Virus record (IMG/VR): IMGVR_UViG_2563366969_000002
Source: a virus
Lineage: Duplodnaviria; Heunggongvirae; Uroviricota; Caudoviricetes
Strand: one strand, 5' to 3'
DNA length: 42,012 nucleotides
The position numbers and the translations under genes are program-made. The notes beneath the pieces are model-generated. The model ran no database searches, had not been told where the DNA came from, and worked only from the letters and a program-made list of their open reading frames with translations. Positions 2,682 to 42,012 of the stretch are shown piece after piece. How positions within the stretch are numbered: position 1 is the stretch's first letter; the number at the start of each line of letters is the position of its first letter.

Positions 2682-2899
2682 TTCGAACCTCTCTGTTTAC
2701 TGATAAGCTCCAGATCTTCCTGGCAACTTGCACAAGTCCGACAACCCTGAACGGCCAAGCGTCTTCGTTCATCTATCGGATCGCCACACTCACAACAATG
2801 AGTGGCAGATATAGCCTGGTGGTTCAGGCGGCACATTTTTATTGCTGTGTTGCGCTGTAATTCTTCAATTTCTGATGCTGAATCAATGATGTCTGCCAT
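2678..2899 (-). CDS. TraR/DksA-type C4 zinc-finger protein
   Basis: 73-aa ORF with CxxC-x17-CxxC (CCECGDPIDERRRLAVQGCRTCASC). Confidence 0.7.
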   Translation of the reverse strand: MADIIDSASEIEELQRNTAIKMCRLNHQAISATHCCECGDPIDERRRLAVQGCRTCASCQEDLELISKQRGSK

Positions 2900-2997
2900 C
2901 TTTCATTAATCCCTGAATTGTTGGTTAATACGCTTGAGGGTGAATGCGAATAATAAAAAAGGAGCCTGTAGCTCCATGATGATTTTGTTTTTCATGC

Positions 2998-3279
2998 TCA
3001 CCGTTCCTTAAAGACGCCGTTTAACATGCCGATCGCCAGGCTTAAATGAGTCGGTGTGAATCCCATCAGCGTTACCGTTTCGCGGTGCTTCTTCAGTACG
3101 CTACGGCAAATGTCATCGACGTTTTTATCCGGAAACTGCTGTCTGGCTTTTTTGATTTCAGAATTAGCCTGACGGGCAATGCTGCGAAGGGCGTTTTCCT
3201 GCTGAGGTGTCACTGAACAAGCCCCATGTCGGCAAGCATAAGCACACAGAATATGAAGCCCGCAGCCAGAAAAATGCAT
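2998..3279 (-). CDS. Hypothetical protein (orf60a position)
   Basis: 93-aa ORF in early-left operon; no recognised family; start uncertain. Confidence 0.35.
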   Translation of the reverse strand: MHFSGCGLHILCAYACRHGACSVTPQQENALRSIARQANSEIKKARQQFPDKNVDDICRSVLKKHRETVTLMGFTPTHLSLAIGMLNGVFKER

Positions 3280-3289
3280 TCAGTGGTTG

Positions 3290-3481
3290 TCATACCTGGT
3301 CTCTCTCATCTGCTTCTGCTTTCGCCACCATCATTTCCAGTTTTTGTGAAAGGGATGTGGCTAACGTATGAAATTCTTTGTCTGTTTCTACTGGTATTGG
3401 CACAAACCTGATTCCAATTTGAGCGAGGCTATGTGCCATCTCGATACTCGTTCTTAACTCAACGGGAGATGCTTTGTGCAT
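3290..3481 (-). CDS. Lambda orf63-like protein
   Basis: 63-aa [37 protein letters not shown]... matches recalled lambda orf63. Confidence 0.6.
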   Translation of the reverse strand: MHKASPVELRTSIEMAHSLAQIGIRFVPIPVETDKEFHTLATSLSQKLEMMVAKAEADERDQV

Positions 3482-3642
3482 ACCGCCTCCCGTTTATTAT
3501 TTATCTTCTCAGCCAGCCGCTGTGCTTTCAGTGGATTTCTGATAACAGAAAGGCCGGGAAATACCCAGCCTCGCTTTGTAACGGAGTAGACGAAAGTGAT
3601 CGCACCTACCCGGATATTATCGTGAGGATGCTTCATCGCCAT
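3454..3642 (-). CDS. Lambda orf61-like protein
   Basis: 62-aa [48 protein letters not shown]... matches recalled lambda orf61. Confidence 0.6.
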
Positions 3643-4313
3643 TGCTCCCCAAATACAAAACCAATTTCAGCCAGTGCCTCGTCCATTTTTTCGATGAACT
3701 CCGGCACCATCTCGTCAAAACTCGCCATGTAATTTTCATCCCGCTCAACCACGACATAATGCAGGCCTTCACGCTTCATCCGCGGGTCATAGTTGGCAAA
3801 GTACCAGGCATCTTTTCGCGTCACCCACATGCTGTACTGCACCTGGGCCATGTAAGCCGACTTTATGGCCTCGAAACCACCGAGCCGGAATTTCATGAAA
3901 TCCCGGGAGGTAAACGGGCATTTCAGTTCAAGGCCGTTGCCGTCACTGCATAAACCATCGGGAGAGCAGGCGGTGCGCATACTTTCGTCGCGATAGATGA
4001 TCGGGGATTCAGTAACATTCACGCCGGAAGTGAATTCAAACAGAGTTCTGGCGTCGTTCTCGTACTGTTTTCCCCAGGCCAGTGCTTTAGCGTTAACTTC
4101 CGGAGCCACACCGGTGCAAACCTCGGCAAGCAGGGTGTGGAAGTAGGACATTTTCATGTCAGGCCACTTTTTTCCGGAGCGGGGTTTTGCTATCACATTG
4201 TGAACTTCTGAAGCGGTGATGACGCCGAGCCGTAATTTGTGCCACGCATCATCTCCCTGCTCGATAGCTCTCACGTCGATCCCGGTACGCTGCAGGATAA
4301 TGTCCGGTGTCAT
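3633..4313 (-). CDS. exo: Lambda exonuclease (Red alpha)
   Basis: 226-aa [65 protein letters not shown]... matches recalled lambda Exo. Confidence 0.95.
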
Positions 4314-5095
4314 GCTGCCACCTTCTGTTCAGTGGCTTTTTGTTTCAGGAATCCAAGAGCTTTCACTGCTTCGTCCTGTGTCAGTTCTGACGATGAACGA
4401 ATGTCGCGGCGAAATATCTGGGAACAGAGCGGCAATAAGTCGTCATCCCATGTTTTATCCAGGGCGATCAGCAGAGTGTTAATCTCCTGCATGGTTTCAT
4501 CGTTAACCGGAGTGATGTCGCGTTCCGGCTGACGTTCTGCAGTGTATGCGGTATTTTCGACAATGCGCTCGGCTTCATCCTTGTCATAGATACCAGTAAA
4601 TCCGAAGGACAGACGGGCACACTGAATCATGGCTTTATGCCGTAACATCCGTTTGGGATGCGACTGCCACGGTCCGGTGATTTCTCTGCCTTCGCGGGTT
4701 TTGAATGGTTCGCGGCGGCATTCATCCATCCACTCGGTAACGCAGATCGGATGATTGCGGTCTTTGCGGTAAATCCGGCATGTGCAGGATTCGTTGTCCT
4801 GTTCAAAGTCCATGCCATCAAACTGCTGGTTTTCGTTGATGATGCGGGACCAGCCATCAACGCCCACCACCGGAACGATGCCGTTCTGCTTATCAGGGAA
4901 GGCGTAAATTTCTTTCGTCCACGGATTAAGGCCGTATTGGTTGGCGACGATCAGCAATGCGATGAACTGCGCATCGCTGGCATCGCCTTTAAATGCTGTC
5001 TGGCGAAGAGTGGTGATCAGTTCCTGTGGGTCGACAGAATCCATGCCGACACGTTCAGCCAGCTTCCCAGCCAGCGTTGCGAGTGCTGTACTCAT
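4310..5095 (-). CDS. bet: Recombinase Beta (Red beta)
   Basis: 261-aa [62 protein letters not shown]... matches recalled lambda Bet; overlaps exo start. Confidence 0.95.
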
Positions 5096-5100
5096 CCGTT

Positions 5101-5397
5101 TTATACCTCTGAATCAATATCAACCTGGTGGTGAGCAATGGTTTCAACCATGTACCGGATGTGTTCTGCCATGCGCTCCTGAAACTCAACATCGTCATCA
5201 AACGCACGGGTAATGGCTTTTTTGCTGGCCCCGTGACGTTGCAAATGATCGATGCAGAGCGATTCAAACAAATGCTGGGGCAGACCCTTTTCCAGGTCGT
5301 CTGCCAGTTCTGCCTCTTTCTCTTCACGGGCGATCTGCTGGTAGTGACGCGCCCAGCTCTGAGCCTCAAGACGATCCTGAATGTAATAAGCGTTCAT
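5101..5397 (-). CDS. gam: Gam (RecBCD inhibitor), 98-aa form
   Basis: [60 protein letters not shown]... matches recalled lambda GamS. Confidence 0.9.
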
Positions 5398-5472
5398 GGC
5401 TGAACTCCTGAAAATGGCTGTGAAAATAGCGCCCGCGAAATGCCAGGCTGATTAGGAAAACAGGAAAGGGGG

Positions 5473-5616
5473 TTAGTGAATGCTTTTGCTTGATCTCAGT
5501 TTCAGTATTAATATCCATTTTTTATAAGCGTCGACGGCCTCACGAAACATCTTTTCATCGCCAATAAAAGTGGCGATAGTGAATTTAGTCTGGATAGCCA
5601 TAAGTGTTTGATCCAT
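5473..5616 (-). CDS. kil: Kil (host-killing, FtsZ inhibitor)
   Basis: 47-aa reading frame [47 protein letters not shown] matches recalled lambda Kil; internal start within a longer listed ORF. Confidence 0.75.
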
Positions 5617-5749
5617 TTTTTGGGACTCCTGGCTGATTAAGTATGTCGATAAGGCGTTTCCATCCGTCACGTAATTTACGGGTGATTCGTTCAAGTAAAG
5701 ATTCGGAAGGGCAGCCAGCAACAGGCCACCCTGCAATGGCATATTGCAT
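5585..5749 (-). CDS. cIII: cIII (protects cII from FtsH)
   Basis: Hand translation gives [54 protein letters not shown], matching recalled lambda cIII (54 aa); below the ORF-track size cutoff. Confidence 0.75.
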   Translation of the reverse strand: MQYAIAGWPVAGCPSESLLERITRKLRDGWKRLIDILNQPGVPKNGSNTYGYPD

Positions 5750-5821
5750 GGTGTGCTCCTTATTTATACATAACGAAAAACGCCTCGAGTGAAGCGTTAT
5801 TGGTATGCGGTAACGCCGCGC

Positions 5822-6190
5822 TCAGGCGGCTTTGATAGTCATATCATCTGAATCAAATATTCCTGATGTATCGATATCGGTAATTCTTATTCCTTCGCTA
5901 CCATCCATTGGAGGCCATCCTTCCTGACCATTTCCATCATTCCAGTCGAACTCACACACAACACCATATGCATTTAAGTCGCTTGAAATTGCTATAAGCA
6001 GAGCATGTTGCGCCAGCATGATTAATACAGCATTTAATACAGAGCCGTGTTTATTGAGTCGGTATTCAGAGTCTGACCAGAAATTATTAATCTGGTGAAG
6101 TTTTTCCTCTGTCATTACGTCATGGTCGATTTCAATTTCTATTGATGCTTTCCAGTCGTAATCAATGATGTATTTTTTGATGTTTGACAT
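5822..6190 (-). CDS. ea10: Ea10 protein
   Basis: 122-aa ORF MSNIKKYIIDYDWKASIEIEIDHDVMTEEKLHQINNFWSDSEYRL... at the lambda ea10 position and length. Confidence 0.8.
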   Translation of the reverse strand: MSNIKKYIIDYDWKASIEIEIDHDVMTEEKLHQINNFWSDSEYRLNKHGSVLNAVLIMLAQHALLIAISSDLNAYGVVCEFDWNDGNGQEGWPPMDGSEGIRITDIDTSGIFDSDDMTIKAA

Positions 6191-6210
6191 CTGTTCATAT
6201 CCTCATAGAT

Positions 6211-6236
6211 AAAAAATCGCCCTCACACTGGAGGGC
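6211..6236 (-). terminator. Intrinsic terminator-like hairpin in leftward operon
   Basis: GCCCTC-loop-GAGGGC stem, followed by a T-run when read on the minus strand (A-run 6211-6216 on plus). Confidence 0.45.
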
Positions 6237-6393
6237 AAAGAAGATTTCCAATAATCAGAACAAGTCGGCTCCTGTTTAGTTACGAGCGACATTGCTCCGT
6301 GTATTCACTCGTTGGAATGAATACACAGTGCAGTGTTTATTCTGTTATTTATGCCAAAAATAAAGGCCACTATCAGGCAGCTTTGTTGTTCTG

Positions 6394-6573
6394 TTAACCA
6401 AGTTCTCTGGCAATCATTGCCGTCGTTCGTATTGCCCATTTATCGACATATTTCCCATCTTCCATTACAGGAAACATTTCTTCAGGCTTAACCATGCATT
6501 CCGATTGCAGCTTGCATCCATTGCATCGCTTGAATTGTCCACACCATTGATTCTTATCAATAGTCGTAGTCAT
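6394..6573 (-). CDS. ral: Ral (restriction alleviation), 59-aa variant
   Basis: Hand translation MTTTIDKNQWCGQFKRCNGCKLQSECMVKPEEMFPVMEDGKYVDKWAIRTTAMIARELG* matches recalled lambda Ral but ends about 7 residues early. Confidence 0.7.
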   Translation of the reverse strand: MTTTIDKNQWCGQFKRCNGCKLQSECMVKPEEMFPVMEDGKYVDKWAIRTTAMIARELG

Positions 6574-6767
6574 ACGGATAGTCCTGGTACTGTTCCATTA
6601 CATCCTGCGGATGCTCTTCGAACTCTTCAAATTCTTCTTCCATATATCACCTTAAATAGTGGATTGCGGTAGTAAAGATTGTGCCTGTCTTTTAACCACA
6701 TCAGGCTCGGTGGTTCTCGTGTACCCCTACAGCGAGAAATCGGATAAACTATTACAACCCCTACAGT

Positions 6768-7322
6768 TTGATGAGTATAGAAATGGATCCACTCGTTATT
6801 CTCGGACGAGTGTTCAGTAATGAACCTCTGGAGAGAACCATGTATATGATCGTTATCTGGGTTGGACTTCTGCTTTTAAGCCCAGATAACTGGCCTGAAT
6901 ATGTTAATGAGAGAATCGGTATTCCTCATGTGTGGCATGTTTTCGTCTTTGCTCTTGCATTTTCGCTAGCAATTAATGTGCATCGATTATCAGCTATTGC
7001 CAGCGCCAGATATAAGCGATTTAAGCTAAGAAAACGCATTAAGATGCAAAACGATAAAGTGCGATCGGTAATTCAAAACCTTACAGAAGAGCAATCTATG
7101 GTTTTGTGCGCAGCCCTTAATGAAGGCAGGAAGTATGTGGTTACATCAAAACAATTCCCATACATTAGTGAGTTGATTGAGCTTGGTGTGTTGAACAAAA
7201 CTTTTTCCCGATGGAACGGGAAGCATATATTATTCCCTATTGAGGATATTTACTGGACTGAATTAGTTGCCAGCTATGATCCATATAATATTGAGATAAA
7301 GCCAAGGCCAATATCTAAGTAA
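6768..7322 (+). CDS. sieB: Superinfection exclusion protein B-like membrane protein
   Basis: 184-aa ORF with two hydrophobic segments (MYMIVIWVGLLLLSP, VWHVFVFALAFSLAINV), between ral and N, convergent with N as recalled for lambda sieB. Confidence 0.65.
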   Translation: MMSIEMDPLVILGRVFSNEPLERTMYMIVIWVGLLLLSPDNWPEYVNERIGIPHVWHVFVFALAFSLAINVHRLSAIASARYKRFKLRKRIKMQNDKVRSVIQNLTEEQSMVLCAALNEGRKYVVTSKQFPYISELIELGVLNKTFSRWNGKHILFPIEDIYWTELVASYDPYNIEIKPRPISK

Positions 7323-7646
7323 CTAGGTAAGAGGAATCGATTTTCCCTTAATTTTCTGGCGTCCACTGCATGTTATGCCGCGTTCGCCAGGCTTGCTGTA
7401 CCATGTGCGCTGATTCTTGCGCTCAATACGTTGCAGGTTGCTTTCAATCTGTTCGTGGTATTCAGCCAGCACTGTAAGGTCTATCGGATTCAGTGCGCTT
7501 TCTACTCGTGATTTCGGTTTGCGATTCAGCGAGAGAATAGGGCGGTTAACTGGTTTTGCGCTTACCCCAACCAACAGGGGATTTGCTGCTTTCCATTGAG
7601 CCTGTTTCTCTGCGCGACGTTCGCGGCGGCGTGTTTGTGCATCCAT
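7323..7646 (-). CDS. N: Antiterminator N
   Basis: MDAQTRRRERRAEKQAQWKAANPLLVGVSAKPVNRPILSLNRKPKSRVESALNPIDLTVLAEYH... matches recalled lambda N; AGGAGA RBS upstream of the internal ATG at 7646. Confidence 0.9.
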   Translation of the reverse strand: MDAQTRRRERRAEKQAQWKAANPLLVGVSAKPVNRPILSLNRKPKSRVESALNPIDLTVLAEYHEQIESNLQRIERKNQRTWYSKPGERGITCSGRQKIKGKSIPLT

Positions 7647-7756
7647 CTGGATTCTCCTGTCAGTTAGCTTTGAGTAACGCGCCGTGATGCTTATCCCCAC
7701 GGTTGCTGTCTTGCAGCTGCATTTCGCGCTACTCAAAGCTTTCTGCTTTGAATGCT

Positions 7757-7771
7757 GCCCTTCTTCAGGGC
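7757..7771 (-). promoter_or_regulatory. nutL boxB hairpin
   Basis: Minus-strand GCCCTGAAGAAGGGC, identical to recalled lambda boxB, between pL and N. Confidence 0.8.
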
Positions 7772-7829
7772 TAAATTTTTAAGAGCCTCACCTTCAATGG
7801 TGGTTAGTGCGTCCTGCTGACGAGCTAAG

Positions 7830-7890
7830 TATCACCGCTAGTGGTATTTGTGTCAACACCGCTAGAGATATTTTATCACCGCAAATGGTT
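7830..7890. promoter_or_regulatory. oL operators / pL promoter
   Basis: Three 17-bp sites TATCACCGCTAGTGGTA, CAACACCGCTAGAGATA, TATCACCGCAAATGGTT, near-identical to recalled lambda OL1-OL3. Confidence 0.85.
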
Positions 7891-8050
7891 ATCTGTATGT
7901 TTTTTATATGGATTTATTTTTTCGAGTGAGTGTATTGCCTCGGCGATGTAAGGAGAGATCAGAATTGCGTTGTTTAGTGAGTTGTATCTATTTATTTTCC
8001 AATAAATACAATTGGTTATGTGTTTTTAGGTGGGGCGATCGTGAGGCAAA

Positions 8051-8078
8051 GAAAACCCGGCGCTGAGGCCGGGCTTTT
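8051..8078 (-). terminator. Intrinsic terminator after the cI-downstream gene
   Basis: CCCGGCGCTGAGGCCGGG stem flanked by A-run (8051-8055) and T-run (8074-8078); terminates leftward transcripts from pRM. Confidence 0.55.
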
Positions 8079-8095
8079 AGGGCGGGTTGATGCTC

Positions 8096-9133
8096 TTAAC
8101 ACCCTTTAATGGGAGTTGAGATACGAGATATCATTGCTGATTCAATTATCCCACTTCTGACTTTATAGTCACCAAAAAGAGAAATTGAATCAGAAAGTTT
8201 CATGCTTTCATAAAGAAGGTCTGTTTCGTCTTTATCTATAAAATCAGTAACAACATAAGCAGGGAAGGTATAATCAGTGCCAACCTTTTTGCAAGTTACT
8301 GTCAGCTTTCCATCTGATTTTTTAATGCCTTCAATTTCAACTTCTTCTGTAAGTTCTTTGTTGGAAAGTTTCTCACGTGGGTTTCTTATCATTTCGGCAA
8401 TATCACGCTTATCTAATTCGATCTTTGCCATACCATTAAACTCTACTCTGTCAGCATCTGAGACGCCTTTCAACACCCCAACCACAGCATTTGAAGTATG
8501 GGATTGAATTCCCTCTGAAATCTCCCTCGCAGCTGCTGTGGCAGTATGAGCAGAAAGAACTTCAACCATGCCATCTTTAAGCAGTCTCATTTGCTCAGTT
8601 TGGCTGTTGGTGTCGTTGAGGCCTTCATCAATCTCAAGTTGCTTCATTTTTTCTATATGGCGATCTTTTTGTCTCGACTTTATCAGCCAAGCCCCAGTAA
8701 GGATCAGCGATATGAGAACGAGACATATAGCTTTCTCTGTTCCAGTCATACCTTGTGTTGACCTCTCAAATGCAACACCAAATGAATCAATTACATCCTT
8801 TATAGCAACAAGTAGGTCAGTACAGCCAGGCTCAACTTTAAAAATTATCTCAAGCTCTTTTCTATCACTGTCTTTCAAATGCTTGAGATTATCCGTTCCT
8901 CGCCTTACAAGCATAAACGCTTTATAAAGTTCGGTCTGAAACTCGCACATACCTTGAGCTAAAGAGGACGGTATCGTCCCATTATACCGGTCTGGATCAC
9001 CATAAATCTTGAAACTTACGTGGTTAACAAAATCAATTTTAATGTCATTGATAGATATTTGCTGACCTTTCTGAACTCTTTCTAAAAACTCTGAAACGTC
9101 GCTTAATGATGAGATATCAATTTGATTGTCCAT
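8096..9133 (-). CDS. Unknown membrane-anchored protein in the rexAB slot
   Basis: 345-aa frame from ATG at 9133 (MDNQIDISSLSD...), 23 nt downstream of cI stop, same strand; one central hydrophobic helix (AICLVLISLILTGAWLI); charged coiled-coil-like C-terminal half; AT-rich by eye; no family recognised. Confidence 0.7.
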   Translation of the reverse strand: MDNQIDISSLSDVSEFLERVQKGQQISINDIKIDFVNHVSFKIYGDPDRYNGTIPSSLAQGMCEFQTELYKAFMLVRRGTDNLKHLKDSDRKELEIIFKVEPGCTDLLVAIKDVIDSFGVAFERSTQGMTGTEKAICLVLISLILTGAWLIKSRQKDRHIEKMKQLEIDEGLNDTNSQTEQMRLLKDGMVEVLSAHTATAAAREISEGIQSHTSNAVVGVLKGVSDADRVEFNGMAKIELDKRDIAEMIRNPREKLSNKELTEEVEIEGIKKSDGKLTVTCKKVGTDYTFPAYVVTDFIDKDETDLLYESMKLSDSISLFGDYKVRSGIIESAMISRISTPIKGC

Positions 9134-9155
9134 ATCTTTTCTCAATGTTATTGTG

Positions 9156-9872
<717 letters not shown>

Positions 9873-9879
9873 TTAAATC

Positions 9880-9943
9880 TATCACCGCAAGGGATAAATA
9901 TCTAACACCGTGCGTGTTGACTGTTTTACCTCTAGCGGTGATA
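9880..9943. promoter_or_regulatory. oR operators / pRM-pR
   Basis: TATCACCGCAAGGGATA, TAACACCGTGCGTGTTG, TACCTCTAGCGGTGATA match recalled lambda OR3, OR2, OR1 (OR1 one mismatch). Confidence 0.85.
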
Positions 9944-9960
9944 ATAATTGCATGTACTAA

Positions 9961-10170
<210 letters not shown>

Positions 10171-10288
10171 ATAACACCGCTCTTACACATCACAGCCCTG
10201 AAAAAGGGCATCCAATTAAACCACACCTATGGTGTATGCATTTATTTGCATACATTCAATCAATTGTTATCTAAGGAAATACTTACAT

Positions 10289-10582
10289 ATGGTTCGTGCA
10301 AACAAACGCAACGAGGCACTACGAATCGAGAGTGCGTTGCTTAACAAAATCGCAATGCTTGGAACTGAGAAGACAGCGGAAGCTGTGGGAGTTGATAAGT
10401 CGCAGATCAGCAGGTGGAAGAGAGACTGGATTCCCAAGTTCTCAATGCTGCTTGCTGTTCTTGAATGGGGGGTCGTTGACGACGACATGGCTCGATTGGC
10501 GCGACAAGTTGCTGCGATTCTCACCAATAAAAAACGCCCGGCGGCAACCGAGCGTTCTGAACAAATCCAGATGGAGTTCTGA
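10289..10582 (+). CDS. cII: cII transcriptional activator
   Basis: ATG at 10289 gives MVRANKRNEALRIESALLNKIAMLGTEKTAEAVGVDKSQISRWKRDWIPKF..., matching recalled lambda cII; the longer listed ORF starts upstream. Confidence 0.93.
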   Translation: MVRANKRNEALRIESALLNKIAMLGTEKTAEAVGVDKSQISRWKRDWIPKFSMLLAVLEWGVVDDDMARLARQVAAILTNKKRPAATERSEQIQMEF

Positions 10583-10614
10583 GGTCATTACTGGATCTAT
10601 CAACAGGAGTCATT

Positions 10615-11514
10615 ATGACAAATACAGCAAAAATACTCAACTTCGGCAGAGGTAACTTTGCCGGACAGGAGCGTAATGTGGCAGATCTCGATGATGGTTA
10701 CGCCAGACTATCAAATATGCTGCTTGAGGCTTATTCGGGCGCAGATCTGACCAAGCGACAGTTTAAAGTGCTGCTTGCCATTCTGCGTAAAACCTATGGG
10801 TGGAATAAACCAATGGACAGAATCACCGATTCTCAACTTAGCGAGATTACAAAGTTACCTGTCAAACGGTGCAATGAAGCCAAGTTAGAACTCGTCAGAA
10901 TGAATATTATCAAGCAGCAAGGCGGCATGTTTGGACCAAATAAAAACATCTCAGAATGGTGTATCCCTCAAAACGAGGGACAATCCCCTAAAACGAGGGA
11001 TAAAACATCCCTCAAATTGGGGGATTGCTATCCCTCAAAACAGGGGGACACAAAAGACACTATTACAAAAGAAAAAAGAAAAGATTATTCGTCAGAGAAT
11101 TCTGGCGAATCCTCTGACCAGCCAGAAAACGATCTTTCTGTGGTTAAACCGGATGCTGCAATTCAGAGCGGCAGCAGGTGGGGGACAGCAGAAGACCTGA
11201 CCGCCGCAGAGTGGATGTTTGACATGGTGAAGACCATCGCGCCATCAGCCAGAAAACCGAATTTTGCAGGGTGGGCTAACGATATCCGCCTGATGCGTGA
11301 ACGTGACGGACATAACCACCGCGACATGTGCGTGCTGTTCCGCTGGGCATGCCAGGACAACTTCTGGTCCGGTAACGTGCTGAGTCCGGCCAAACTCCGC
11401 GACAAGTGGACCCAGCTCGAAATCAACCGTAACAAGCAACAGGCAGGCGTGACAGCTAGCAAACCAAAACTCGACCTGACAAACACAGACTGGATTTACG
11501 GGGTGGATCTATGA
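10615..11514 (+). CDS. O: Replication initiator O
   Basis: 299-aa ORF MTNTAKILNFGRGNFAGQERNVADLDDGYARLSNMLLEAY... matches recalled lambda O; contains ori iterons. Confidence 0.95.
   Translation: MTNTAKILNFGRGNFAGQERNVADLDDGYARLSNMLLEAYSGADLTKRQFKVLLAILRKTYGWNKPMDRITDSQLSEITKLPVKRCNEAKLELVRMNIIKQQGGMFGPNKNISEWCIPQNEGQSPKTRDKTSLKLGDCYPSKQGDTKDTITKEKRKDYSSENSGESSDQPENDLSVVKPDAAIQSGSRWGTAEDLTAAEWMFDMVKTIAPSARKPNFAGWANDIRLMRERDGHNHRDMCVLFRWACQDNFWSGNVLSPAKLRDKWTQLEINRNKQQAGVTASKPKLDLTNTDWIYGVDL
10963..11090 (+). repeat. ori-lambda: four ~18-bp iterons plus AT-rich tract
   Basis: ATCCCTCAAAACGAGGGA / ATCCCCTAAAACGAGGGA / ATCCCTCAAATTGGGGGA / ATCCCTCAAAACAGGGGGA followed by A-rich stretch, inside O. 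Confidence 0.85.
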
Positions 11515-12415: not shown

Positions 12416-13435
12416 ATGTGTTATAGCAATGTTACAGATCGTGATCTTATGGGGCAAATTGCTACTAAATTAAATGACTATCGAAACCCTCCTCAAGGTG
12501 GCATGAGCATTGATCATGTTAATCGATGGATTAATCAATTTGAGTTAACCGATAGGCGATTTGTCTTAGAGGAAACGGACCGATTAATGGGGATTGGATA
12601 CTTCTCTGAGAGCGACTATCGCAGAGTTATTAGTAGTATCGCCAATGATGAGCAAAATGAAAGGTTCTTTCAAACCGCAGCGTTTCTCGATATCCAGAAC
12701 CAAGGCACCAGTCAATCTGAGTTTTTGGATTTGCTTCGAGAAGATTGTGTAGAAGAATTCAACGTTGTGACCAGACTGTCACAACGTCAAAGAGTTAGTT
12801 CATTCCGTGAATTTATTTACCTTGACGATGTTTCATTCTCAGGAGCTAAGGCAATCAATGATTTAACTTGGTTTATTGAGCACTTTGAACTCCAAAATAT
12901 TACAATATTGGTGTACTTTTTAGGCGGGCACACGTATTCAGCATGGAAGATAAAAAACCAACTTGAACGAAAATTTGCTGATAGGAATATTTCAGTTTGC
13001 GTTGGTGGTGGTGAGTTTGCAGTTGTTGAAAATCAACGCCGAAACAGTTCGAGTTCTGAGGTTTTTTGGCCAAAAGCGCAAAGTGTATCAATACCTGAAT
13101 GGGCTGACGGTCAAGTACATTATTTAGGAACATATCGTGACGGTTACGTCGCGAATAATTTTTTCCCTAATGAGCAGAGACGAGATCGTTTTGAAGCAAT
13201 TATGACAAAAGTTGGGTTTGATATCCTTGGTCAGAGTCAAAATCCTTCTGATGTTATAAAGCCTTTAGGCTTTTCAACTTTCAATGGTGTTGGGTTTGGT
13301 GGAACTATCTTTACTTTCAGAAACTGCCCCAATAATACCCCTCTAGCGTACTGGTGGGGAACTTATCTTCGAACGGGAAATAGAGCTCTGGATTGTTGGT
13401 ATCCACTTATGAAGCGTAATGTGTATAATCGGTGA
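12416..13435 (+). CDS. Unknown 339-aa protein, gene A of inserted two-gene module
   Basis: ATG at 12416 with AGGAA 6 nt upstream; AT-rich by eye; no confident family. Weak resemblance of FIYLDDVSFSGAKAI to the PRPP-binding loop of phosphoribosyltransferases (low confidence). Confidence 0.75.
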   Translation: MCYSNVTDRDLMGQIATKLNDYRNPPQGGMSIDHVNRWINQFELTDRRFVLEETDRLMGIGYFSESDYRRVISSIANDEQNERFFQTAAFLDIQNQGTSQSEFLDLLREDCVEEFNVVTRLSQRQRVSSFREFIYLDDVSFSGAKAINDLTWFIEHFELQNITILVYFLGGHTYSAWKIKNQLERKFADRNISVCVGGGEFAVVENQRRNSSSSEVFWPKAQSVSIPEWADGQVHYLGTYRDGYVANNFFPNEQRRDRFEAIMTKVGFDILGQSQNPSDVIKPLGFSTFNGVGFGGTIFTFRNCPNNTPLAYWWGTYLRTGNRALDCWYPLMKRNVYNR

Positions 13436-14049
13436 TCATGAGCTATAGACTATACCTGTTTCACAACACAGTTTCTTTCAGGAAAACCACCGAGAAATGG
13501 GGTGGTCTTTCCAACATGGCCAAAGGATATCCGCTCTTAGTTAATGGTATACCCATTCAATCGAGTGAAATTCTTTACCAAGCATGCCGATATCCAGACT
13601 ATCCAGATATCCAAAAGGCTATTATTACCCAAGGCAACCCTTATGAAGCTAAACAAACCGCCAGATCTTTCGAAGCCAAAACCCGTGCAGGTTGGGAAAA
13701 AAATCGAGTTTCGGTAATGAAATGGTGTGTCTGCGTTAAGCTTTGCCAGAACTGGGAATCGTTTTTCGCGCTCCTGGATAGCACAGGAGAGCATGACATT
13801 GTTGAGCACTCAGAGAAGGACCAATTTTGGGGGGCTAGTAAAGACTCCGAAGGTAACTTTTATGGTATGAACGTGTTAGGTCGTATCCTTATGGATGCGA
13901 GAGATGTTGCAAGAAAGAAGGGGCTTTCAGGGTTTGCTACGATACCGCCGCTACCCTTGGATAGGTTTCTTCTGCTCGGGGAGCAAATACGTGATGTTAC
14001 TTTCTCTCCACTACCGATGAATTCGGGGCAAAGCTTATCGCTTTTTTAA
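13432..14049 (+). CDS. NADAR / YbiA-like (DUF1768) protein, gene B of inserted module
   Basis: 205-aa ORF; start overlaps gene A stop (GTG 13432 in GTGA, or ATG 13438). Matches the recalled YbiA/NADAR pattern: SNM..(Y)..SSE.LYQA.....WE..RV.VM......K..QN.....LL.STG...IVEH...D.FWG......GN.LG.ILM..R. Confidence 0.7.
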   Translation: MIMSYRLYLFHNTVSFRKTTEKWGGLSNMAKGYPLLVNGIPIQSSEILYQACRYPDYPDIQKAIITQGNPYEAKQTARSFEAKTRAGWEKNRVSVMKWCVCVKLCQNWESFFALLDSTGEHDIVEHSEKDQFWGASKDSEGNFYGMNVLGRILMDARDVARKKGLSGFATIPPLPLDRFLLLGEQIRDVTFSPLPMNSGQSLSLF

Positions 14050-17036: not shown

Positions 17037-17840
17037 CTATTTCTTTTTGGGAAGTGGATACTTTAAGCTAACATTTTGAGTTTCTATATCTCGTGGCCCT
17101 CGAGTTTTATCATAAAAATACCAGATATTAAATTTTCTCTCAGTGTGCCATGTATCATATTGCAAGTGATCCCAGCCTAAATATGAAGCAACATAGTTTG
17201 ATACTCTTATTTTGGCTTCAGATGAAGCTTTTCCTTGATATGCGCACATAACCGCACCTAAGAAAAAATCGGCTAGCTGAATGTTTTCAGATGCTTTAGA
17301 GTCTTTTGTCACTACACTGCTGATTATCCCTTTACGACCAAATTTTCTATTCAATATGTTATTGGCAATAACATTTAGTTCTTCATCAGCCTTTTTATAA
17401 CGAGATGCGATAGGATCAACTTCAATCCTGAAGTAACTGTCTCTTTCAGGGTGTGCAGAAATTACAGAGCTAATTTTTGTGGTAATGAGATTTGTGAAGT
17501 GCTTTCTCCTTGCCAGGTCATAATCTCCATTATGAAATGCCTTATTTACTATTGATTTTTCAACCACGATACAATGAAAAGCTAGCCAAGGAACTCTAAA
17601 GAATAAGTCGATCAGCTCAAGATAAAATTCAGAGTATCTTTTTGAATGGGCTTTTTGCCATTTTATTTCTTCAAAAAAACCATGTTTTCTGCGTAGTTCT
17701 CTGATTAGTTGACAGAAATCCCCACGGCGTTGGTACTTCATCCACAGACTGCCAAAGCCGTAGAAACGTTGTCCATCAATGCCAGATTCATCGCAAGCAA
17801 TATGCCAAATTAACTTACCAATGTTATCTTTTTCTGTCAT
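17037..17840 (-). CDS. Unknown protein, possible DUF3800-like; antisense moron between late leader and lysis genes
   Basis: 267-aa ORF, AT-rich by eye, opposite to late transcription; N-terminal IWHIACDESGIDGQ resembles the DESG motif I recall for DUF3800 proteins (low confidence). Confidence 0.65.
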   Translation of the reverse strand: MTEKDNIGKLIWHIACDESGIDGQRFYGFGSLWMKYQRRGDFCQLIRELRRKHGFFEEIKWQKAHSKRYSEFYLELIDLFFRVPWLAFHCIVVEKSIVNKAFHNGDYDLARRKHFTNLITTKISSVISAHPERDSYFRIEVDPIASRYKKADEELNVIANNILNRKFGRKGIISSVVTKDSKASENIQLADFFLGAVMCAYQGKASSEAKIRVSNYVASYLGWDHLQYDTWHTERKFNIWYFYDKTRGPRDIETQNVSLKYPLPKKK

Positions 17841-19326: not shown

Positions 19327-19620
19327 TTATTGTGAGCAATACACACGCGCTTCCAGCGGAGTATAAATGCCTAAAGTAATAAAACCGAGCAATCCATTTA
19401 CGAATGTTTGCTGGGTTTCTGTTTTAACAACATTTTCTGCGCCGCCACAAATTTTGGCTGCATCAACAGTTTTCTCCTGTCCAATTCCCGAAACGAAGAA
19501 ATGATGGGTGATGGTTTCCTTTGGTGTTACTGCTGTCGGTTTGTTTCCAACAGTAAACGTCTGTTGAGCACATCCTGTAATAAGCATTGCCAGAGCGGCA
19601 GAAAACAACATTTTTTTCAT
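19327..19620 (-). CDS. bor: Bor lipoprotein (serum-resistance moron)
   Basis: From internal ATG: MKKMLFSAALAMLITGCAQQTFTVGNKPTAVTPKETITHHFFVSGIGQEKTVDAAKICGGAENVVKTETQQTFVNGLLGFITLGIYTPLEARVYCSQ, matches recalled lambda Bor. Confidence 0.9.
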   Translation of the reverse strand: MKKMLFSAALAMLITGCAQQTFTVGNKPTAVTPKETITHHFFVSGIGQEKTVDAAKICGGAENVVKTETQQTFVNGLLGFITLGIYTPLEARVYCSQ

Positions 19621-26705: not shown

Positions 26706-27112
26706 AAATTCGTCAGGCGCAGACCAGCGCAACCTACATTCTGCCGGACCCCGGTGAACTGAATAAACGCGTCCTGATCCGCCTGCGGGTGGATATGCCC
26801 GCGGATAACTTTGGCGTGGAGCCTCAATACCCGGTTACGTTCCGGACATGGGCGAAGGTTATCCAGACCAGTGCCACCACCTGGCAGGAAACCGCGCAGA
26901 CCGGGGACGCCATCACCCATTACATCACCATTCGTTACCGCCGGGGGATCACCGCTGATTATGAGGTGGTCTGCGGTGACAGTGTGTACCGGGTGAAACG
27001 TCAGCGCGATCTGAACGGGGCGCGGCGCTTTCTGCTGCTGGAGTGTACGGAGCTGGGTGAATGTAGGCAGAGTCACGGAGGCAACAATGACGACTTCCTT
27101 TTTGCACGTTGA
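26702..27112 (+). CDS. Head closure / head-tail adaptor protein
   Basis: 136-aa ORF with overlapping start; position and size. Confidence 0.6.
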   Translation: MKIRQAQTSATYILPDPGELNKRVLIRLRVDMPADNFGVEPQYPVTFRTWAKVIQTSATTWQETAQTGDAITHYITIRYRRGITADYEVVCGDSVYRVKRQRDLNGARRFLLLECTELGECRQSHGGNNDDFLFAR

Positions 27113-27593
27113 TTTTCAGCAGCCCGCGGAGATGCGCTTTAACCGCGCCCGTGTCCGGCGGGCGTTTATCACGATTGGGCAGCGTCATATGCGTGATGCC
27201 CGTCGGCTGGTGATACGCCGTGCGCGGTCGGCACCGGGTGAAAACCCCGGTTATCAGACCGGACGCCTGGCTCGTTCGATTGGTTACATGGTACCCAGAG
27301 CCAGTAAACATCGCCCTGGTTTTATGGCACGTATAGCCCCTAACCAGCGTAATGGAGAGGGAAACCGACGTATCACCGGTGATTTTTATCCGGCTTTTTT
27401 GTTCTATGGCGTGAGGCGAGGGGCAAAGCGTCGTCGCAGCCATCATCGTGGTGCATCCGGTGGCAGCGGCTGGCGACTGGCTCCACGTAATAACTTTATG
27501 GTGGAAACGCTTGAAAAGAACCGCAGCTGGACACGCTATTTTCTGGCGCGGGAATTACGTAAATCACTGAAGCCGGAGCGACGACGCAGATGA
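27087..27593 (+). CDS. HK97 gp10-like tail/neck component
   Basis: ATG 27087 with GGAGG upstream (listed ORF starts at GTG 27057); basic protein, synteny. Confidence 0.55.
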   Translation: MTTSFLHVDFQQPAEMRFNRARVRRAFITIGQRHMRDARRLVIRRARSAPGENPGYQTGRLARSIGYMVPRASKHRPGFMARIAPNQRNGEGNRRITGDFYPAFLFYGVRRGAKRRRSHHRGASGGSGWRLAPRNNFMVETLEKNRSWTRYFLARELRKSLKPERRRR

Positions 27594-28150
27594 AACTGAC
27601 GCCTGTTATTGCTGCGCTGCGTGCCCGCTGCCCGTATTTTGAAAACCGGGTGGCAGGCGCGGCACAGTTCAAAAATCTGCCGGAGGTCGGAAAGCTGAGA
27701 CTCCCGGCGGCGTATGTGGTACCGGGTGATGACTCTCCGGGAGAAAACAAAAGCCAGACCGACTACTAGCAGGAGCTGAAAGAGGGTTTCTCCGTGGTTG
27801 TCATACTGAGTAACGGGCGTGATGAGCGCGGTCAGTTTGCCTCGTATGATGTGGTGGACGATGTCCGGCAGATGCTCTTTAAGGCCCTGCTGGGCTGGAA
27901 CCCGGAAGCGTGCGGTAACCCGATTACCTATGACGGCGGCACGCTGCTGGATCTGAATCGTCATGAGCTGATTTATCAGTTCGATTTTTCGGTCATCAGC
28001 GAGCTGACCGAAGACGATACCCGCCAGCAGGATGATCTGAACAGTCTGGATGAACTGCAAACGCTGGCGATTGATGTTGATTATCTCGAGCCCGGTAACG
28101 GGCCTGACGGCGATATCGAACATCACACCGAAATAACCCTTCCTTCCTGA
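27590..28150 (+). pseudogene. Neck/tail-completion gene interrupted by in-frame TAG
   Basis: ATG 27590 (ATGA overlap with upstream gene) reads 59 codons to TAG at 27767-27769; same frame continues 27770-28150 (listed ORF from GTG 27794). Confidence 0.5.
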
Positions 28151-28158
28151 GGATCCTC

Positions 28159-28329
28159 ATGTTTGTCAAACCTGTTAAAGGGCGGTCAGTGCCTGACCCT
28201 GCCCGCGGCGACCTTTTGCCCGCCGAAGGGCGAAATGTTGACGAGAACAACTACTGGCTGCGCCGTGAAGCAGCGGGTGATATCCGGCGCGTGAATAAAA
28301 AGGTGAACACCGATGACGATAAGCTTTAA
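28159..28329 (+). CDS. Small protein preceding tail sheath
   Basis: 56-aa ORF MFVKPVKGRSVPDPARGDLLPAEGRNVDENNYWLRREAAGDIRRVNKKVNTDDDKL*, GAGGA upstream; overlaps sheath start. Confidence 0.4.
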   Translation: MFVKPVKGRSVPDPARGDLLPAEGRNVDENNYWLRREAAGDIRRVNKKVNTDDDKL

Positions 28330-29809
28330 CACCATTCCGTCGAATACGCTGGTTCCGTTGTTTTATGCGGAAATGGATAACCAGGCGGCGAATACTGCAC
28401 AGGACAGCGGAGCATCGCTGCTGATTGGTCATGCCAATAACGGTGCAGAGATTGTTGCCAACAGTCTGGTACTGATGTCGTCGGCAGACTATGCACGCCA
28501 GATTTGTGGTGCGGGAAGTCAGCTGGCGCGTATGGTCGAGGCTTATCGCCAGACTGACCCGTTTGGCGAGCTGTATGTGATTGCCGTTCCTGAATCCACA
28601 GGTGCGGCGGCAACAGTTACGCTGACGGTGACCGGGGCGGCAACCGAAACCGGCACGGTGAATGTGTATGTAGGACGTACCCGCGTGCAGGCACCGGTGA
28701 CTAACGGCGATAACGTCACGATGATTGCCAGCAGTATCCAGGATGCCATCAATGCCGTTCCGACCCTGCCGTTTACGGCTTCATCTTCGGCAGGCGTGGT
28801 CACACTGACCGCGCGTCATAAGGGGCTTTGTGGGAATGAAATTCCTGTCAGCCTCAATTACTACGGCTTTGGTGGGGGCGAAGTGCTGCCAGCGGGCGTA
28901 CAGATTGCCGTGGCGACGGGTACCGCCGGAACGGGCGCTCCGGTTCTCACCGGCGCGGTGGCTGCAATGGCGGATGAGCCGTTTGATTATATCGGTCTGC
29001 CGTTCAACGACACGGCCTCTGTTAACACGCTGGTGACCGAGATGAACGATACCAGCGGTCGCTGGAGCTATGCGCGTCAGCTGTATGGTCATGTGTATAC
29101 GGCAAAGGCCGGCACACTGTCAGAACTGGTGACCGCAGGTGACCAGTTTAACCAGCAGCACATTACCCTGGCGGGGTACGAAAAAGAGACCCAGACGCCT
29201 GCCGACGAGCTGGCGGCAAGCCGTACCGCCCGCGCAGCGGTGTTTATCCGCAACGATCCGGCACGTCCCACGCAGACCGGTGAGCTGGTGGGTATGCTGC
29301 CTGCGCCGAAGGGGAAACGGTTCACGATGACCGAACAACAGACCCTGCTGTCTCATGGCGTGGCAACGGCGTATGTCGAAAGCGGGGTACTGCGCATTCA
29401 GCGTGATGTCACCACGTACAGGAAAAACGCTTACGGGGTTGCGGATAACAGTTACCTCGACAGTGAGACGCTGCATACCAGCGCGTATGTACTGCGCAAA
29501 CTGAAATCCGTCATTACCAGTAAGTACGGGCGTCACAAGCTTGCCAGTGACGGTACCCGCTTTGGTCCCGGTCAGGCGATTGTCACCCCGGCGGTGATCA
29601 AAGGGGAACTGCTGGCAACCTACCGTCAGCTTGAGCGTGCGGGGATCGTGGAAAACTACGAACTGTTTAAGCAGTACCTGGTTGTGGAGCGTGATGCCAG
29701 CGATCCGAACCGCCTGAACACGCTGTTCCCGCCTGACTATGTTAACCAGCTGCGTATCTTTGCCGTGGTTAATCAGTTCCGTCTTCAGTATTCAGAGGAG
29801 TCTGCATAA
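28313..29809 (+). CDS. Tail sheath protein (Mu gpL-like)
   Basis: 498-aa ORF, size and position before tube/chaperone/tape measure; contractile-tail signature. Confidence 0.85.
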   Translation: MTISFNTIPSNTLVPLFYAEMDNQAANTAQDSGASLLIGHANNGAEIVANSLVLMSSADYARQICGAGSQLARMVEAYRQTDPFGELYVIAVPESTGAAATVTLTVTGAATETGTVNVYVGRTRVQAPVTNGDNVTMIASSIQDAINAVPTLPFTASSSAGVVTLTARHKGLCGNEIPVSLNYYGFGGGEVLPAGVQIAVATGTAGTGAPVLTGAVAAMADEPFDYIGLPFNDTASVNTLVTEMNDTSGRWSYARQLYGHVYTAKAGTLSELVTAGDQFNQQHITLAGYEKETQTPADELAASRTARAAVFIRNDPARPTQTGELVGMLPAPKGKRFTMTEQQTLLSHGVATAYVESGVLRIQRDVTTYRKNAYGVADNSYLDSETLHTSAYVLRKLKSVITSKYGRHKLASDGTRFGPGQAIVTPAVIKGELLATYRQLERAGIVENYELFKQYLVVERDASDPNRLNTLFPPDYVNQLRIFAVVNQFRLQYSEESA

Positions 29810-38119: not shown

Positions 38120-38563
38120 ATGGATAACTACTATTTTTCACCTTCGACTTTGGCATTTTATCCTGAAGATCTCATGTTGTTATATGAAGCAGCAGGAACT
38201 TTACCTGATGATATTATTTCTGTGCCACATGAAATATTTGCTACTTATTCAGGAGAGCCACCACGAGGAAAAAAGCGAGGTACTACAGAAGATGGGCTGC
38301 CCACCTGGAGTAATCTGCCGCCTTTAAGTCATGAGGAAGAAGTTGAGGTTGCGGACGCCCAAAGACAGTTTCGTATTGATGAGGCGAACGACTACATGAA
38401 TAGTAAGCAATGGCCAGGTAAAGCCGCTATTGGTCGTCTGAAAGGCGAGGAACTGGCGCAATATAATTCGTGGCTGGATTATCTGGACGCACTGGAGCTG
38501 GTCGATACTTCCGGTGCGCCAGATATTGAATGGCCTACGCCTCCGGCAGTTCAGGCCAGATGA
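38120..38563 (+). CDS. tfa: Tail fibre assembly protein
   Basis: 147-aa ORF; C-terminal ...WLDYLDALELVDTSGAPDIEWPTPP matches the conserved Tfa C-terminal motif (VDTSxAPDIEWP). Confidence 0.8.
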   Translation: MDNYYFSPSTLAFYPEDLMLLYEAAGTLPDDIISVPHEIFATYSGEPPRGKKRGTTEDGLPTWSNLPPLSHEEEVEVADAQRQFRIDEANDYMNSKQWPGKAAIGRLKGEELAQYNSWLDYLDALELVDTSGAPDIEWPTPPAVQAR

Positions 38564-38864
38564 CATCCGGCGCGATGCTTGTATCTATTGCCGCCACCGC
38601 ATCAATGTAATCAAGCACAGCGTTAAGCCGAGCGGTTTCTGCCTGCGTCAATTTACGTCCGGCCTGTAATTTCAGTTGAATCAGACTGATGGAAGCCATA
38701 GCAGCATCAATCAGCGACTGGCGTGGTGACGAGAACAGTTGCATCTTACAACCGTATTTTTCTGGACAACTGTAGGATATACGGACCGGGATTTGGAAGT
38801 AGCGGCGGTAAACGAACAGGGATTTTCGATTTTTCATCATGTGTGTTCGGGTGGTTATCAGCAA
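38535..38864 (-). pseudogene. Inverted tail-fibre-assembly gene remnant (tfa')
   Basis: Minus-strand ORF whose last ~50 aa (…KLTQAETARLNAVLDYIDAVAAIDTSIAPDVIWPELPEA) carry the Tfa C-terminal motif; N-terminal part unrelated; 3' end overlaps tfa convergently. Confidence 0.45.
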
Positions 38865-39084: not shown

Positions 39085-40734
39085 CTAGTTTACAGGGATG
39101 TTAATTATCTGAAGAGTTCCAGAAAGATCGTAAGTTCCCACCTCAATGTTTATAATATCGCCTTTGTTGATTGACTTCGCGGTCCAACTATAATCTGTTA
39201 GCTTTGTTGATTTGGGCCAGAAGTCAGTATAAACAGGTCGTTTTTCGCCTTTATAAGTAATTCTGAGATAAACTTTAGGACCCTGCTTGAAGTTATCGGA
39301 TGAAAGGTCATTATTCGTTTTAAGCACAATAAGGTCATTGCTTTTAGCAATATATATGCTTTCCAGAATAGTTTCCTTAGCTGGAATCATTGTCTTGCCA
39401 ACCTTGATTTCATTGGATTCGGGAAGCATGGAATAATCAAAAGTTGAGTTAGACTTTCTGATCCGCGAAACGCCGAAGTATTCACCATACGTATTCACCG
39501 AGTGGTACATATCAAACTTATCACCCTTCGACAGAAGTTTTGGGAAGTAAAAATCAGGGATCATGAAATCTTTTTTCCCCTGACGCTTCATTTCTGCAAT
39601 AACGCTCATGCGCACATCATTTTGCATGAATGCTGACTTATATGATTTGTACATGAAGTAATAGGACGGCGCGAAGTATGCTAACAGTATTGCAGCAAGG
39701 CCAGCAAAAAATAGCTTAATAGAAGTTCCGTGATAAGCCTGATTTAACGCAAAAGACATAGAGACAAGCATCAAAACCAGGGTTCCGTTGCCTGAGCGAG
39801 GCGGATACCCCGGAGCTGCAGCCATCATTGCTACAGAGAGAAGAGAGGCAGACAGGAACGCCGCTGAGCAAATGACCCTAGATTTCAACGTATCTTTCTC
39901 TACTGCATTCAAGCAACCCGCAAGCAGTGACACACCAATTATCAGCAGTGGTATCCATAGCATACCCATCATTTCTGGTGCGCGGCTATAAAAGTGCTCA
40001 TCAAGCCTGTCCACCATGGGTTTGTCATACCAATATGTAAAATACTTAGCTCGAGCAGCGTTCCCAGGAGATAGCACCAATATCGCATAACCAATGATGG
40101 CGCTGAATGAGTAGAAAGCAAATGAGTAGTTACGCTCTTTTTTAAGGAAATATCCAACAGCAAAGAAAATCGCTGGAGCTGCGACGGCAATAAAACCTGT
40201 ATTTTCATTTGAACATCCAGCAGCTAAGGCAAGGAGCAATGAAACAATAGACAAACTATACTTTTTATTAAAGTAATCTTTAAATATTGAAAGCAAGAAT
40301 AGGCATAGTATAACGTTGGTCCATAAGTAGTTCGCAGACCCAACCAACCAGAAGGTAGTTTGTCCTATGTTGGTATTTGATATCCAATATGTAAGGAAAA
40401 TAATTATGGATACAACAATGAACCCAGAACTCGACTGTTTATTTGTTGTGGTGTAACCGATTTTTGTTAAGCAAAATGTTAATAAAACTGGAGCCAGTGA
40501 ATTTATCGCCGCTCTGATGTAATGATTATCAATGAACAGTATAAATCCACTGATATAGTCAGCTATTACGCGCCCACTCCACGTAAAGTAGTGATTAATA
40601 TGGGATTCTAAACTTATTCCCTTCAATGCATATGCATAATCATCTGAATGCATTGGTGTATGCAATGCAATTCCAAGTGTTAATACATACATTAGAAGAT
40701 ATACAAGAGATATTTTTATCTTATCGACGTTCAT
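39085..40734 (-). CDS. Type-specific O-antigen glucosyltransferase (GtrC-like), polytopic membrane protein
   Basis: 549-aa highly hydrophobic ORF, AT-rich, directly downstream of gtrB; third gene of gtr cassette by synteny. Confidence 0.75.
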
Positions 40735-41650
40735 TTTTTATTCCTTTAATTATGTAACGTGGTCTTGATTTTACTTCGACATATATCCTGCCAATGTATT
40801 CACCAAGTACGCCAATACCTATCAACTGAATGCCACCAAGGAACAGAATAGACACAAGTAGTGATGGATAACCACGTACTGCATTACCGAATACCAGGGT
40901 GTCGAAAATCATCCAAGCTCCGTACAGAAACGATAATACAGCAACAATTAGGCCGATATAGGTCCACATGCGTAAAGGGACGGTAGAAAAGCTAGTGATA
41001 CCTTCAAGGGCAAGATTCCATAGTTTCCATCCATTGAATTTTGAATCGCCAGCAACACGCTCAGCGCGTGCATATTCCACTACATCGGTACGCCCGCCAA
41101 CCCAACTTAAAACCCCTTTCATGAAGAGATTTCTCTCAGGCATGAGCTTGATGTTCTCGACTACATCACGAGACATTAATCGAAAATCACCGACATTCTC
41201 TTCAATTTTTGGGTTGCTGATTTTGTTATGCAGTTTATAAAACCATTCGGCAGATTTTCGCTTCAAAGCGCTATCAGTTGAGCGGTCAGATCGCTTAGCC
41301 AGGACCATATCTGCTCCGCCCTGCCATTTCTCAATCAGATGAGGAATGACTTCAATCGGATCCTGAAGGTCAACATCAATTGGAATCACGGCATCGCCAG
41401 TTGCATGGTCTAACCCTGCAAACAATGCTGGTTCTTTACCAAAGTTGCGTGTAAATGACAGCGGAAAAACTAGCGGATCAGAAACAGCCAGAGCGTTAAT
41501 GATTGACTCCGTAGCGTCTTTGCTGCCGTCATTTATGAAAACAATTTCCACTTCATATGGCTTCAACTCTTCGAATTCACGTACCGTTTTATAGAAAATT
41601 GGTATCGCTTCTTCTTCATTGAAGACAGGAACGACCAGAGATATCTTCAT
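40721..41650 (-). CDS. gtrB: Bactoprenol glucosyltransferase GtrB
   Basis: 309-aa [51 protein letters not shown]... GT2-family; matches recalled GtrB. Confidence 0.92.
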
Positions 41651-42012
41651 TATTTCGCATCCCTAAAGACAATGAACTTTGAATAGACGAAACCGCACAC
41701 CAGGCTGATGGCGGAGAAGGTGACAAGAGTGACAATTGGAGGAAGTGAACATCTATCAGCAACCCACCCGACGACAACACTCAAGGTTCCCATGAATCCC
41801 ACATATAACAAGTAACGCATCGTTGTAGTCGATGCTTTGAATGTGAATTTTGCATTCGCGAAGAAGCTAAAGCTCACAGCTACTATGAAACCTGCGAAGT
41901 TTGCCAGAGCCTGATTGGTATGCGCGGCATAGATACATACACCAAAAACCACCCAGTGTATAAGTGTGTTCAGCACACCAATCGAGGTGTACTTTGCAAA
42001 TAGCTTTAACAT
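41650..42012 (-). CDS. gtrA: Flippase GtrA
   Basis: 120-aa [70 protein letters not shown]... near-identical to recalled GtrA; ATG at the last 3 nt of the window. Confidence 0.92.

Follow-up and report, generated by a model that had tools for sequence, protein, structure and literature searches.

The SfV-family serotype-converting myophages, among them the Shigella flexneri phage SfI, are inducible and plaque-forming (PMC3636060). SfV-type phages combine an HK97-type head with a neck of adaptor, head closure and Neck1 proteins, whereas Mu has the adaptor only (PMC11915804). In Mu, cryo-EM has placed a hexamer of gp37, the product of gene K, at the end of the tail, where it caps the tube and sheath and docks the adaptor (PMC11915804). 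In Pseudomonas phage JBD30, gp42 is a hexamer, and its ring lies below the adaptor, next to the first disc of the tail tube (PMC11445458). Mutants null for the terminator make polytails in lambda, and longer tails in the case of Mu K and SPO1 gene 8 (PMC11784142).

The DNA analysed here is a stretch of 42,012 nt (the window) that carries a prophage of the SfV/SfI/SfII type, in which an HK97-type head and a contractile tail of the Mu type go with lambdoid early genes; its earlier description as a Mu-tailed lambdoid phage was right. Its tail terminator gene is truncated by an amber codon, a difference from Mu gp37, lambda gpU, T5 p142, T4 gp15 and the R-pyocin collar. Early-stage defective prophages are comparable, and lambda Uam and Mu Kam mutants likewise carry a single nonsense codon in the terminator gene with the other genes intact, but these mutants are laboratory isolates on a suppressor host, whereas the window amber is natural and fixed in a wild clone. 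The classical terminator ambers yield heads and aberrant long tails, a phenotype that would be expected for the window prophage too (PMC11784142).

The interrupted gene and its neighbours

Coordinates and reading frame were recomputed from the window sequence and bore out the in-frame amber that an earlier note had placed in a gene starting at an ATGA overlap. The ATG at 27590 shares these four bases with the TGA of the upstream ORF (27057-27593). The 59 codons up to the TAG are open, the TAG is the sole interruption of the frame, and the frame then stays open to a TGA at 28148-28150 (Table 1). The base directly 3′ of the TAG is C. The first in-frame start past the stop is a GTG located 24 nt beyond it. 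The AAGAGGG that the note had seen upstream of this GTG is present, at a spacing of 7 nt and not 6, a trivial correction. The flanking structural genes (Neck1, DUF2635 and sheath) are all intact by profile matches and annotation, as they had appeared to be in the note.

Table 1. Coordinates of the interrupted gene, its parts and its neighbours in the window.
Feature	Coordinates	Strand	Remarks
Tail completion/Neck1 (SfV orf8 homologue), intact	27087-27593	+	phrog_879 at 5e-93; annotation
Tail terminator pseudogene (SfV orf9 homologue)	27590-28150	+	186 codons, one in-frame amber
59-aa truncated product	27590-27769	+	helix 4-13, short strand 21-23 and first long strand 40-53 only
Amber TAG, codon 60	27767-27769	+	derived base A at 27768; ancestral TGG (Trp)
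Possible reinitiation site AAGAGGG + GTG	27780-27796	+	AAGAGGG 27780-27786; GTG 27794-27796
118-aa ORF, residues 69-186	27794-28150	+	starts mid-strand 61-74
DUF2635 gene, Mu gp38-like, intact	28159-28329	+	Pfam PF10948 at 1e-16; annotation
Tail sheath gene, intact	28313-29809	+	annotation

Identity of the interrupted gene

The protein with W60 restored (the repaired protein) matched Pfam PF23840 (Phage_tail_terminator) over residues 3-135 with 93.1 bits (E 2e-26), the gathering cutoff of this family being 27 bits. An AF2 model of the repaired protein had a pLDDT of 89 and a pTM of 0.76. With this model, the top Foldseek match was the Mu terminator (9khy; E 2.8e-8, TM 0.61/0.65), followed by A-1(L) gp7, 7-7-1, Milano, the R2 pyocin collar, T5 p142, lambda gpU and T4 gp15 (probability ~1.0). 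Model and matches have the terminator fold, a beta-sheet flanked by two helices with the C-terminal hairpin of myophages. The gene order is adaptor, head closure, Neck1, terminator, DUF2635 (Mu gp38-like), sheath and tube, which places the neck genes on one side and the sheath and tube genes on the other, as is the case for terminators. From the PF23840 match, the AF2 and Foldseek results and its position, the amber-split gene is identified as encoding a tail terminator. The earlier name, a neck/tail-completion gene, needs a minor correction, as the tail-completion gene is the upstream neighbour.

The window protein shares with Mu gp37 the fold, the location of the gene directly 5′ of the gp38-like DUF2635, sheath and tube genes, and the expected hexamer role, although sequence identity between the two is only ~15%. 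By homology to Mu gp37, the window terminator would be a hexamer that caps the tube and sheath and to which the head docks. In the PDB, a profile built from 75 homologues picked out JBD30 gp42 (8rk9) with an E value of 2.7e-10, the only solved structure found by sequence profile. This protein occupies the same position in the particle; it is, however, a siphophage protein without a sheath-binding role, which its depositors named stopper, and the alignment spans residues 6-117 only. The single-sequence PDB search with the repaired protein gave nothing meaningful, and no NCBIfam model matched it.

In PHROGs, half-gene families exist for the terminator, phrog_10113 (residues 1-77) and phrog_5122 (residues 79-185); a split near residue 78 was found in none of the 32 phage records. 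The full-length family, phrog_209, is labelled 'portal protein', a label that deletion fusions may explain; one example is P0065, with the N-terminus of a portal and the C-terminus of a terminator. In homologues from a few assemblies (P0001, P0003, P0004 and P0008), a small indel at the stop codon joins the terminator in frame with the DUF2635 protein (Mu gp38-like) encoded downstream, giving proteins of 246-247 aa, and in P0012 and P0014 the terminator is joined to unrelated sequence after deletions. These fusions are separate lesions that arose independently of the amber, in further prophage copies of this gene.

Origin and distribution of the amber codon

DNA alignment with SfV, E. coli S88 and strain 4 revealed a single G-to-A transition that converts TGG (Trp) into TAG. 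Codon 60 is TGG in each of these intact homologues. SfV orf9 is one continuous ORF of 186 codons, the S88 and strain 4 copies are continuous too, and so is the ORF in all 32 of 32 phage records. Thus the alignment of homologues, proposed in the earlier note as a check, gave one continuous ORF and not two genes; intact homologues are single ORFs of ~186 aa. The homologues of SfV (orf9), SfI, SfII and SfIV are 97-100% identical to the window's protein and lie in the same gene order; their codon 60 is TGG, in contrast to the TAG of the window. The SfI protein is 100% identical to the repaired window protein, W60 being the only change from the window's own; therefore, the window allele is one base from a working gene. 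It also differs by one base from a widespread, otherwise identical intact allele. Inspection by eye placed the mutated minus-strand C in CCAGT and not in the Dcm sequence CCWGG, so the site is not a canonical hotspot.

The frequency of the two alleles was determined in 5,426 complete E. coli genomes with 45-mer probes, the 28-nt exact word of megablast being forced to span the variant base. TAG was present in 6 of the 5,426 genomes and TGG in 1,054. The TAG genomes (SCU-485, FDAARGOS_1372, FDAARGOS_1253, FDAARGOS_1254, 20Y000092 and MS 57-2) are independent, come from the USA and the UK and include FDA-ARGOS references. In all six, NCBI PGAP marks the CDS interrupted at codon 60 as a pseudogene with an 'internal stop'; the product is named 'phage tail terminator protein' in five and hypothetical in one. 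Among public assemblies, the exact 59-aa product was found on 597 contigs and the exact 118-aa product on 614, while the repaired 186-aa protein was found on at least 1,000. The ~600 contigs with the fragments come from NCBI, ENA, JGI and Logan, and in all contexts read the 118-aa fragment belonged to the same prophage. Since both fragments occur on ~600 public contigs, the TAG allele is not a read error, and the sense codon that the note had envisaged on resequencing did not appear: the independent assemblies, six genomes and ~600 contigs, read TAG.

The prophage and its clone

The 951-nt stretch around the amber gene is 97-98.7% identical to the Shigella flexneri serotype-converting phages and also matches ~1,080 E. 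coli records. With the SfV-family phages the window prophage has in common the gtr serotype-conversion cassette at the prophage end; it differs from them in its torS-torT site and its lambda-type immunity module. In each of the six TAG genomes the prophage occupies the torS-torT site and the remaining late genes are intact, with identical protein accessions. Base-by-base comparison of five of them gave 0-3 SNPs over a 40-kb stretch, 5.7 kb of which is chromosomal flank. Among complete genomes, the late region with TGG that comes closest is only 98.8% identical over 8 kb. The late region is present once in each TAG genome, and therefore no close second copy is available for complementation. The prophage variant with TAG was seen at no other site or background among the complete E. 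coli genomes; this single-site distribution is as expected for a prophage that is no longer spreading. Taken together, the sequences indicate that the TAG allele is genuine and derived, and that it has been passed on within a single recent clone.

The window itself had no full-length match among the 5,426 complete E. coli genomes. Its segment 11152-42012 (30.9 kb) does not differ by a single base from four of the six TAG genomes, and all 16 shared differences from the TAG genomes fall in 11060-11151, a mosaic junction. On the other side of this junction, window 5473-11150 is a lambda-type early/immunity module with kil, DUF2528, sieB, N, an S24 repressor, cII and O, as well as a 374-aa ORF without a Pfam match; its junctions lie near 5472 and at 11060-11151. 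An ordinary lambda-like prophage of strain CUPS03, located at gal-bio attB, matches this module with 100% identity. Where the window has this module, the six TAG genomes carry a HipA-kinase/DUF3037/S24 module. The amber late region thus occurs in at least two mosaic backgrounds, which by sequence comparison implies that the window prophage is a recent recombinant with an exchanged early region.

The cargo is intact, namely the gtr cluster at 39085-42012 (gtrA/gtrB/gtr-type O-antigen glucosylation) and iss/bor at 19327-19620. The int, xis, exo, bet and gam ORFs of the window are full length (exo 226 aa, bet 261 aa, gam 98 aa). In SCU-485 (3416-6381, corresponding to window 2300-5400), frameshifts are annotated in the TraR/DksA, zapA-like, DUF1382, exo, bet, gam and torS genes. 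The alignment of the two has 11 gap openings in 5.5 kb, and the SCU-485 frameshifts are most likely indel errors of that assembly. Phosphoribosyltransferase-like and NADAR-family genes lie 3′ of the replication gene P (window 12416-14049, + strand) and a DUF3800 gene lies on the opposite strand between Q and the holin gene (17037-17840, − strand); going by names taken only from RefSeq annotation, these may be accessory or defence cargo. The intact tail fibre and assembly genes are followed immediately by a partial tail fibre assembly gene on the opposite strand (38535-38723, − strand), the N-terminus of which is annotated as missing in all six TAG genomes. It resembles a vestige of a fibre cassette that was alternative or invertible.

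Predicted consequence of the stop

In the AF2 model, the stop falls on the last residue of the loop that makes the hairpin turn between strands 40-53 and 61-74. The 59-aa product has one helix and one core strand, with two thirds of the fold lost. Residues 60-68, including half of a core strand, are absent from both fragments, and the 118-aa product therefore lacks Q61 and F67, which are conserved in 71 and 66, respectively, of the 75 homologues. Position 60 itself is variable in the family (R in 26, W in 15, Q in 7, Y in 6, and also I, T, L and S), and thus the product of readthrough at W60 would probably be functional. AAGAGGG and GTG are the ordinary codons K64-E65-G66 ... V69 and occur in the TGG alleles as well; in this region the TGG and TAG alleles differ only by a synonymous GGC/GGT at 27787. 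Since the same bases are found in intact alleles, the Shine-Dalgarno sequence and the GTG are not an adaptation to the split.

The following course of events is proposed. A G-to-A transition in a single recent clone of E. coli changed Trp60 (TGG) of the terminator gene into amber (TAG). Translation would halt at residue 59, within the turn that links the first two long beta-strands, and most of the fold would be gone. At the GTG some reinitiation may occur, which would yield an incomplete fragment. The truncated 59-aa product is predicted to have lost its function, as judged from the extent of the truncation and from the null phenotypes of other phages. The hexameric ring that would normally stop tube and sheath polymerisation and give the tail its surface for the DNA-filled head would then be missing. 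After induction, excision, replication, lysis and head production would still go on, but the tails, lacking a cap or being too long, could not be joined to heads, and few or no infectious particles would be made. The prophage would then pass on vertically, keeping the host-useful gtrA/gtrB/gtr-type and iss/bor genes. A scarcity or absence of infectious virions would fit the purely clonal distribution of the TAG prophage. The rest of the late region is intact, presumably because the mutation is very young. Since a virion needs only six copies of the terminator, the block may be leaky rather than absolute.

Discussion

Of the three readings offered in the earlier note, these results favour a nonsense mutation that makes the prophage tail-defective: the homologues have TGG and the stop is found in one clone. 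We are highly confident that the terminator lesion is a recent, clonally inherited nonsense mutation of this kind and a plain loss of function.

In another reading, the amber is leaky or suppressor-dependent, and low readthrough by a near-cognate tRNA or a host suppressor keeps the prophage viable at reduced titre. Position 60 accepts Q, Y, L and S, the amino acids to be expected there from amber suppression or near-cognate decoding. The base after the TAG is C, and in E. coli termination at UAG is comparatively weak when C follows. Few copies of the terminator per particle suffice, as it is a hexamer (PMC11915804). However, the 42,012-nt window contains no tRNA gene, and hence no suppressor tRNA gene. 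In FDAARGOS_1372 both tRNA-Gln(CUG) genes have the CUG anticodon; the anticodons of the glnX-glnV operon are wild-type, with no supE in this TAG genome. The supF probe was absent from all six TAG genomes and matched one laboratory strain only, which suggests that the probe was correct without proving it. The supE probe was validated by matches in C600, DH5alpha and DH1, and among the 60 listed of its 158 matches all were K-12 laboratory lines. The search covered supE in one TAG genome and supF in all six, two of the amber suppressors, a group to which serU, leuX and trpT also belong. The stop, moreover, is not conserved among homologues, as it would be in programmed readthrough: it is confined to one clone, and the codon is a sense codon in 1,054 genomes and 32 phage records. 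The TAG variant of the prophage is found at one site in one clone, unlike an actively spreading phage. We therefore consider dependence of the prophage on readthrough or suppression improbable, and the suggestion of the earlier note to this effect found no support.

A related proposal is that the amber acts as a throttle. Low readthrough of UAG would then give few infectious particles and an attenuated but transmissible serotype-converting phage, which we regard as quite unlikely. As a whole, this reading would have the allele kept in a successful clone (~600 assemblies) by a lower cost of induction, an idea to which we attach equally little credence. That the ~600 TAG assemblies represent a successful clone is likely, and selection for the TAG allele itself is a less likely reason for their number.

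A functional gene in two pieces, with the 59-aa N-terminal fragment and a reinitiated 118-aa C-terminal fragment assembling in trans, was the remaining reading in the note, there described as a deliberate split. A plausible Shine-Dalgarno sequence does lie 7 nt 5′ of the GTG at 27794, 24 nt past the stop, both ORFs are predicted by gene callers, and PHROGs holds half-gene families for the terminator. But no homologue is split at the 59/69 boundaries and the PHROG halves break near residue 78; the Shine-Dalgarno sequence and GTG are unchanged ancestral coding sequence; the near-invariant Q61 and F67 are missing from both pieces; and the TAG allele is limited to one young clone. A naturally split gene was also rejected on the single ORFs of the intact homologues (SfV, S88, strain 4, the TGG genomes and the 32 phage records). 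Such a functional split is very improbable.

A sequencing or assembly artefact with a true codon of TGG can be dismissed almost with certainty: although the SCU-485 assembly contains errors, with many frameshifted genes nearby and none in the window, the change is a substitution and not a homopolymer indel, and the same base is read in six independent complete genomes and in the fragments on ~600 contigs.

The nonsense mutation is a textbook natural amber mutation, and the lesion is already known, being recorded as a pseudogene in RefSeq. Its importance beyond bookkeeping is slight. The amber marks an SfV/SfI-like prophage as probably without infectious particles while its other late genes look intact, which is a caution for predictors of prophage 'intactness', as an intact-looking prophage can be defective. 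The value of the finding lies in the snapshot that it would give of the first lesion in prophage decay, a clean and datable step with a single lesion, an otherwise unchanged 31 kb and the cargo kept.
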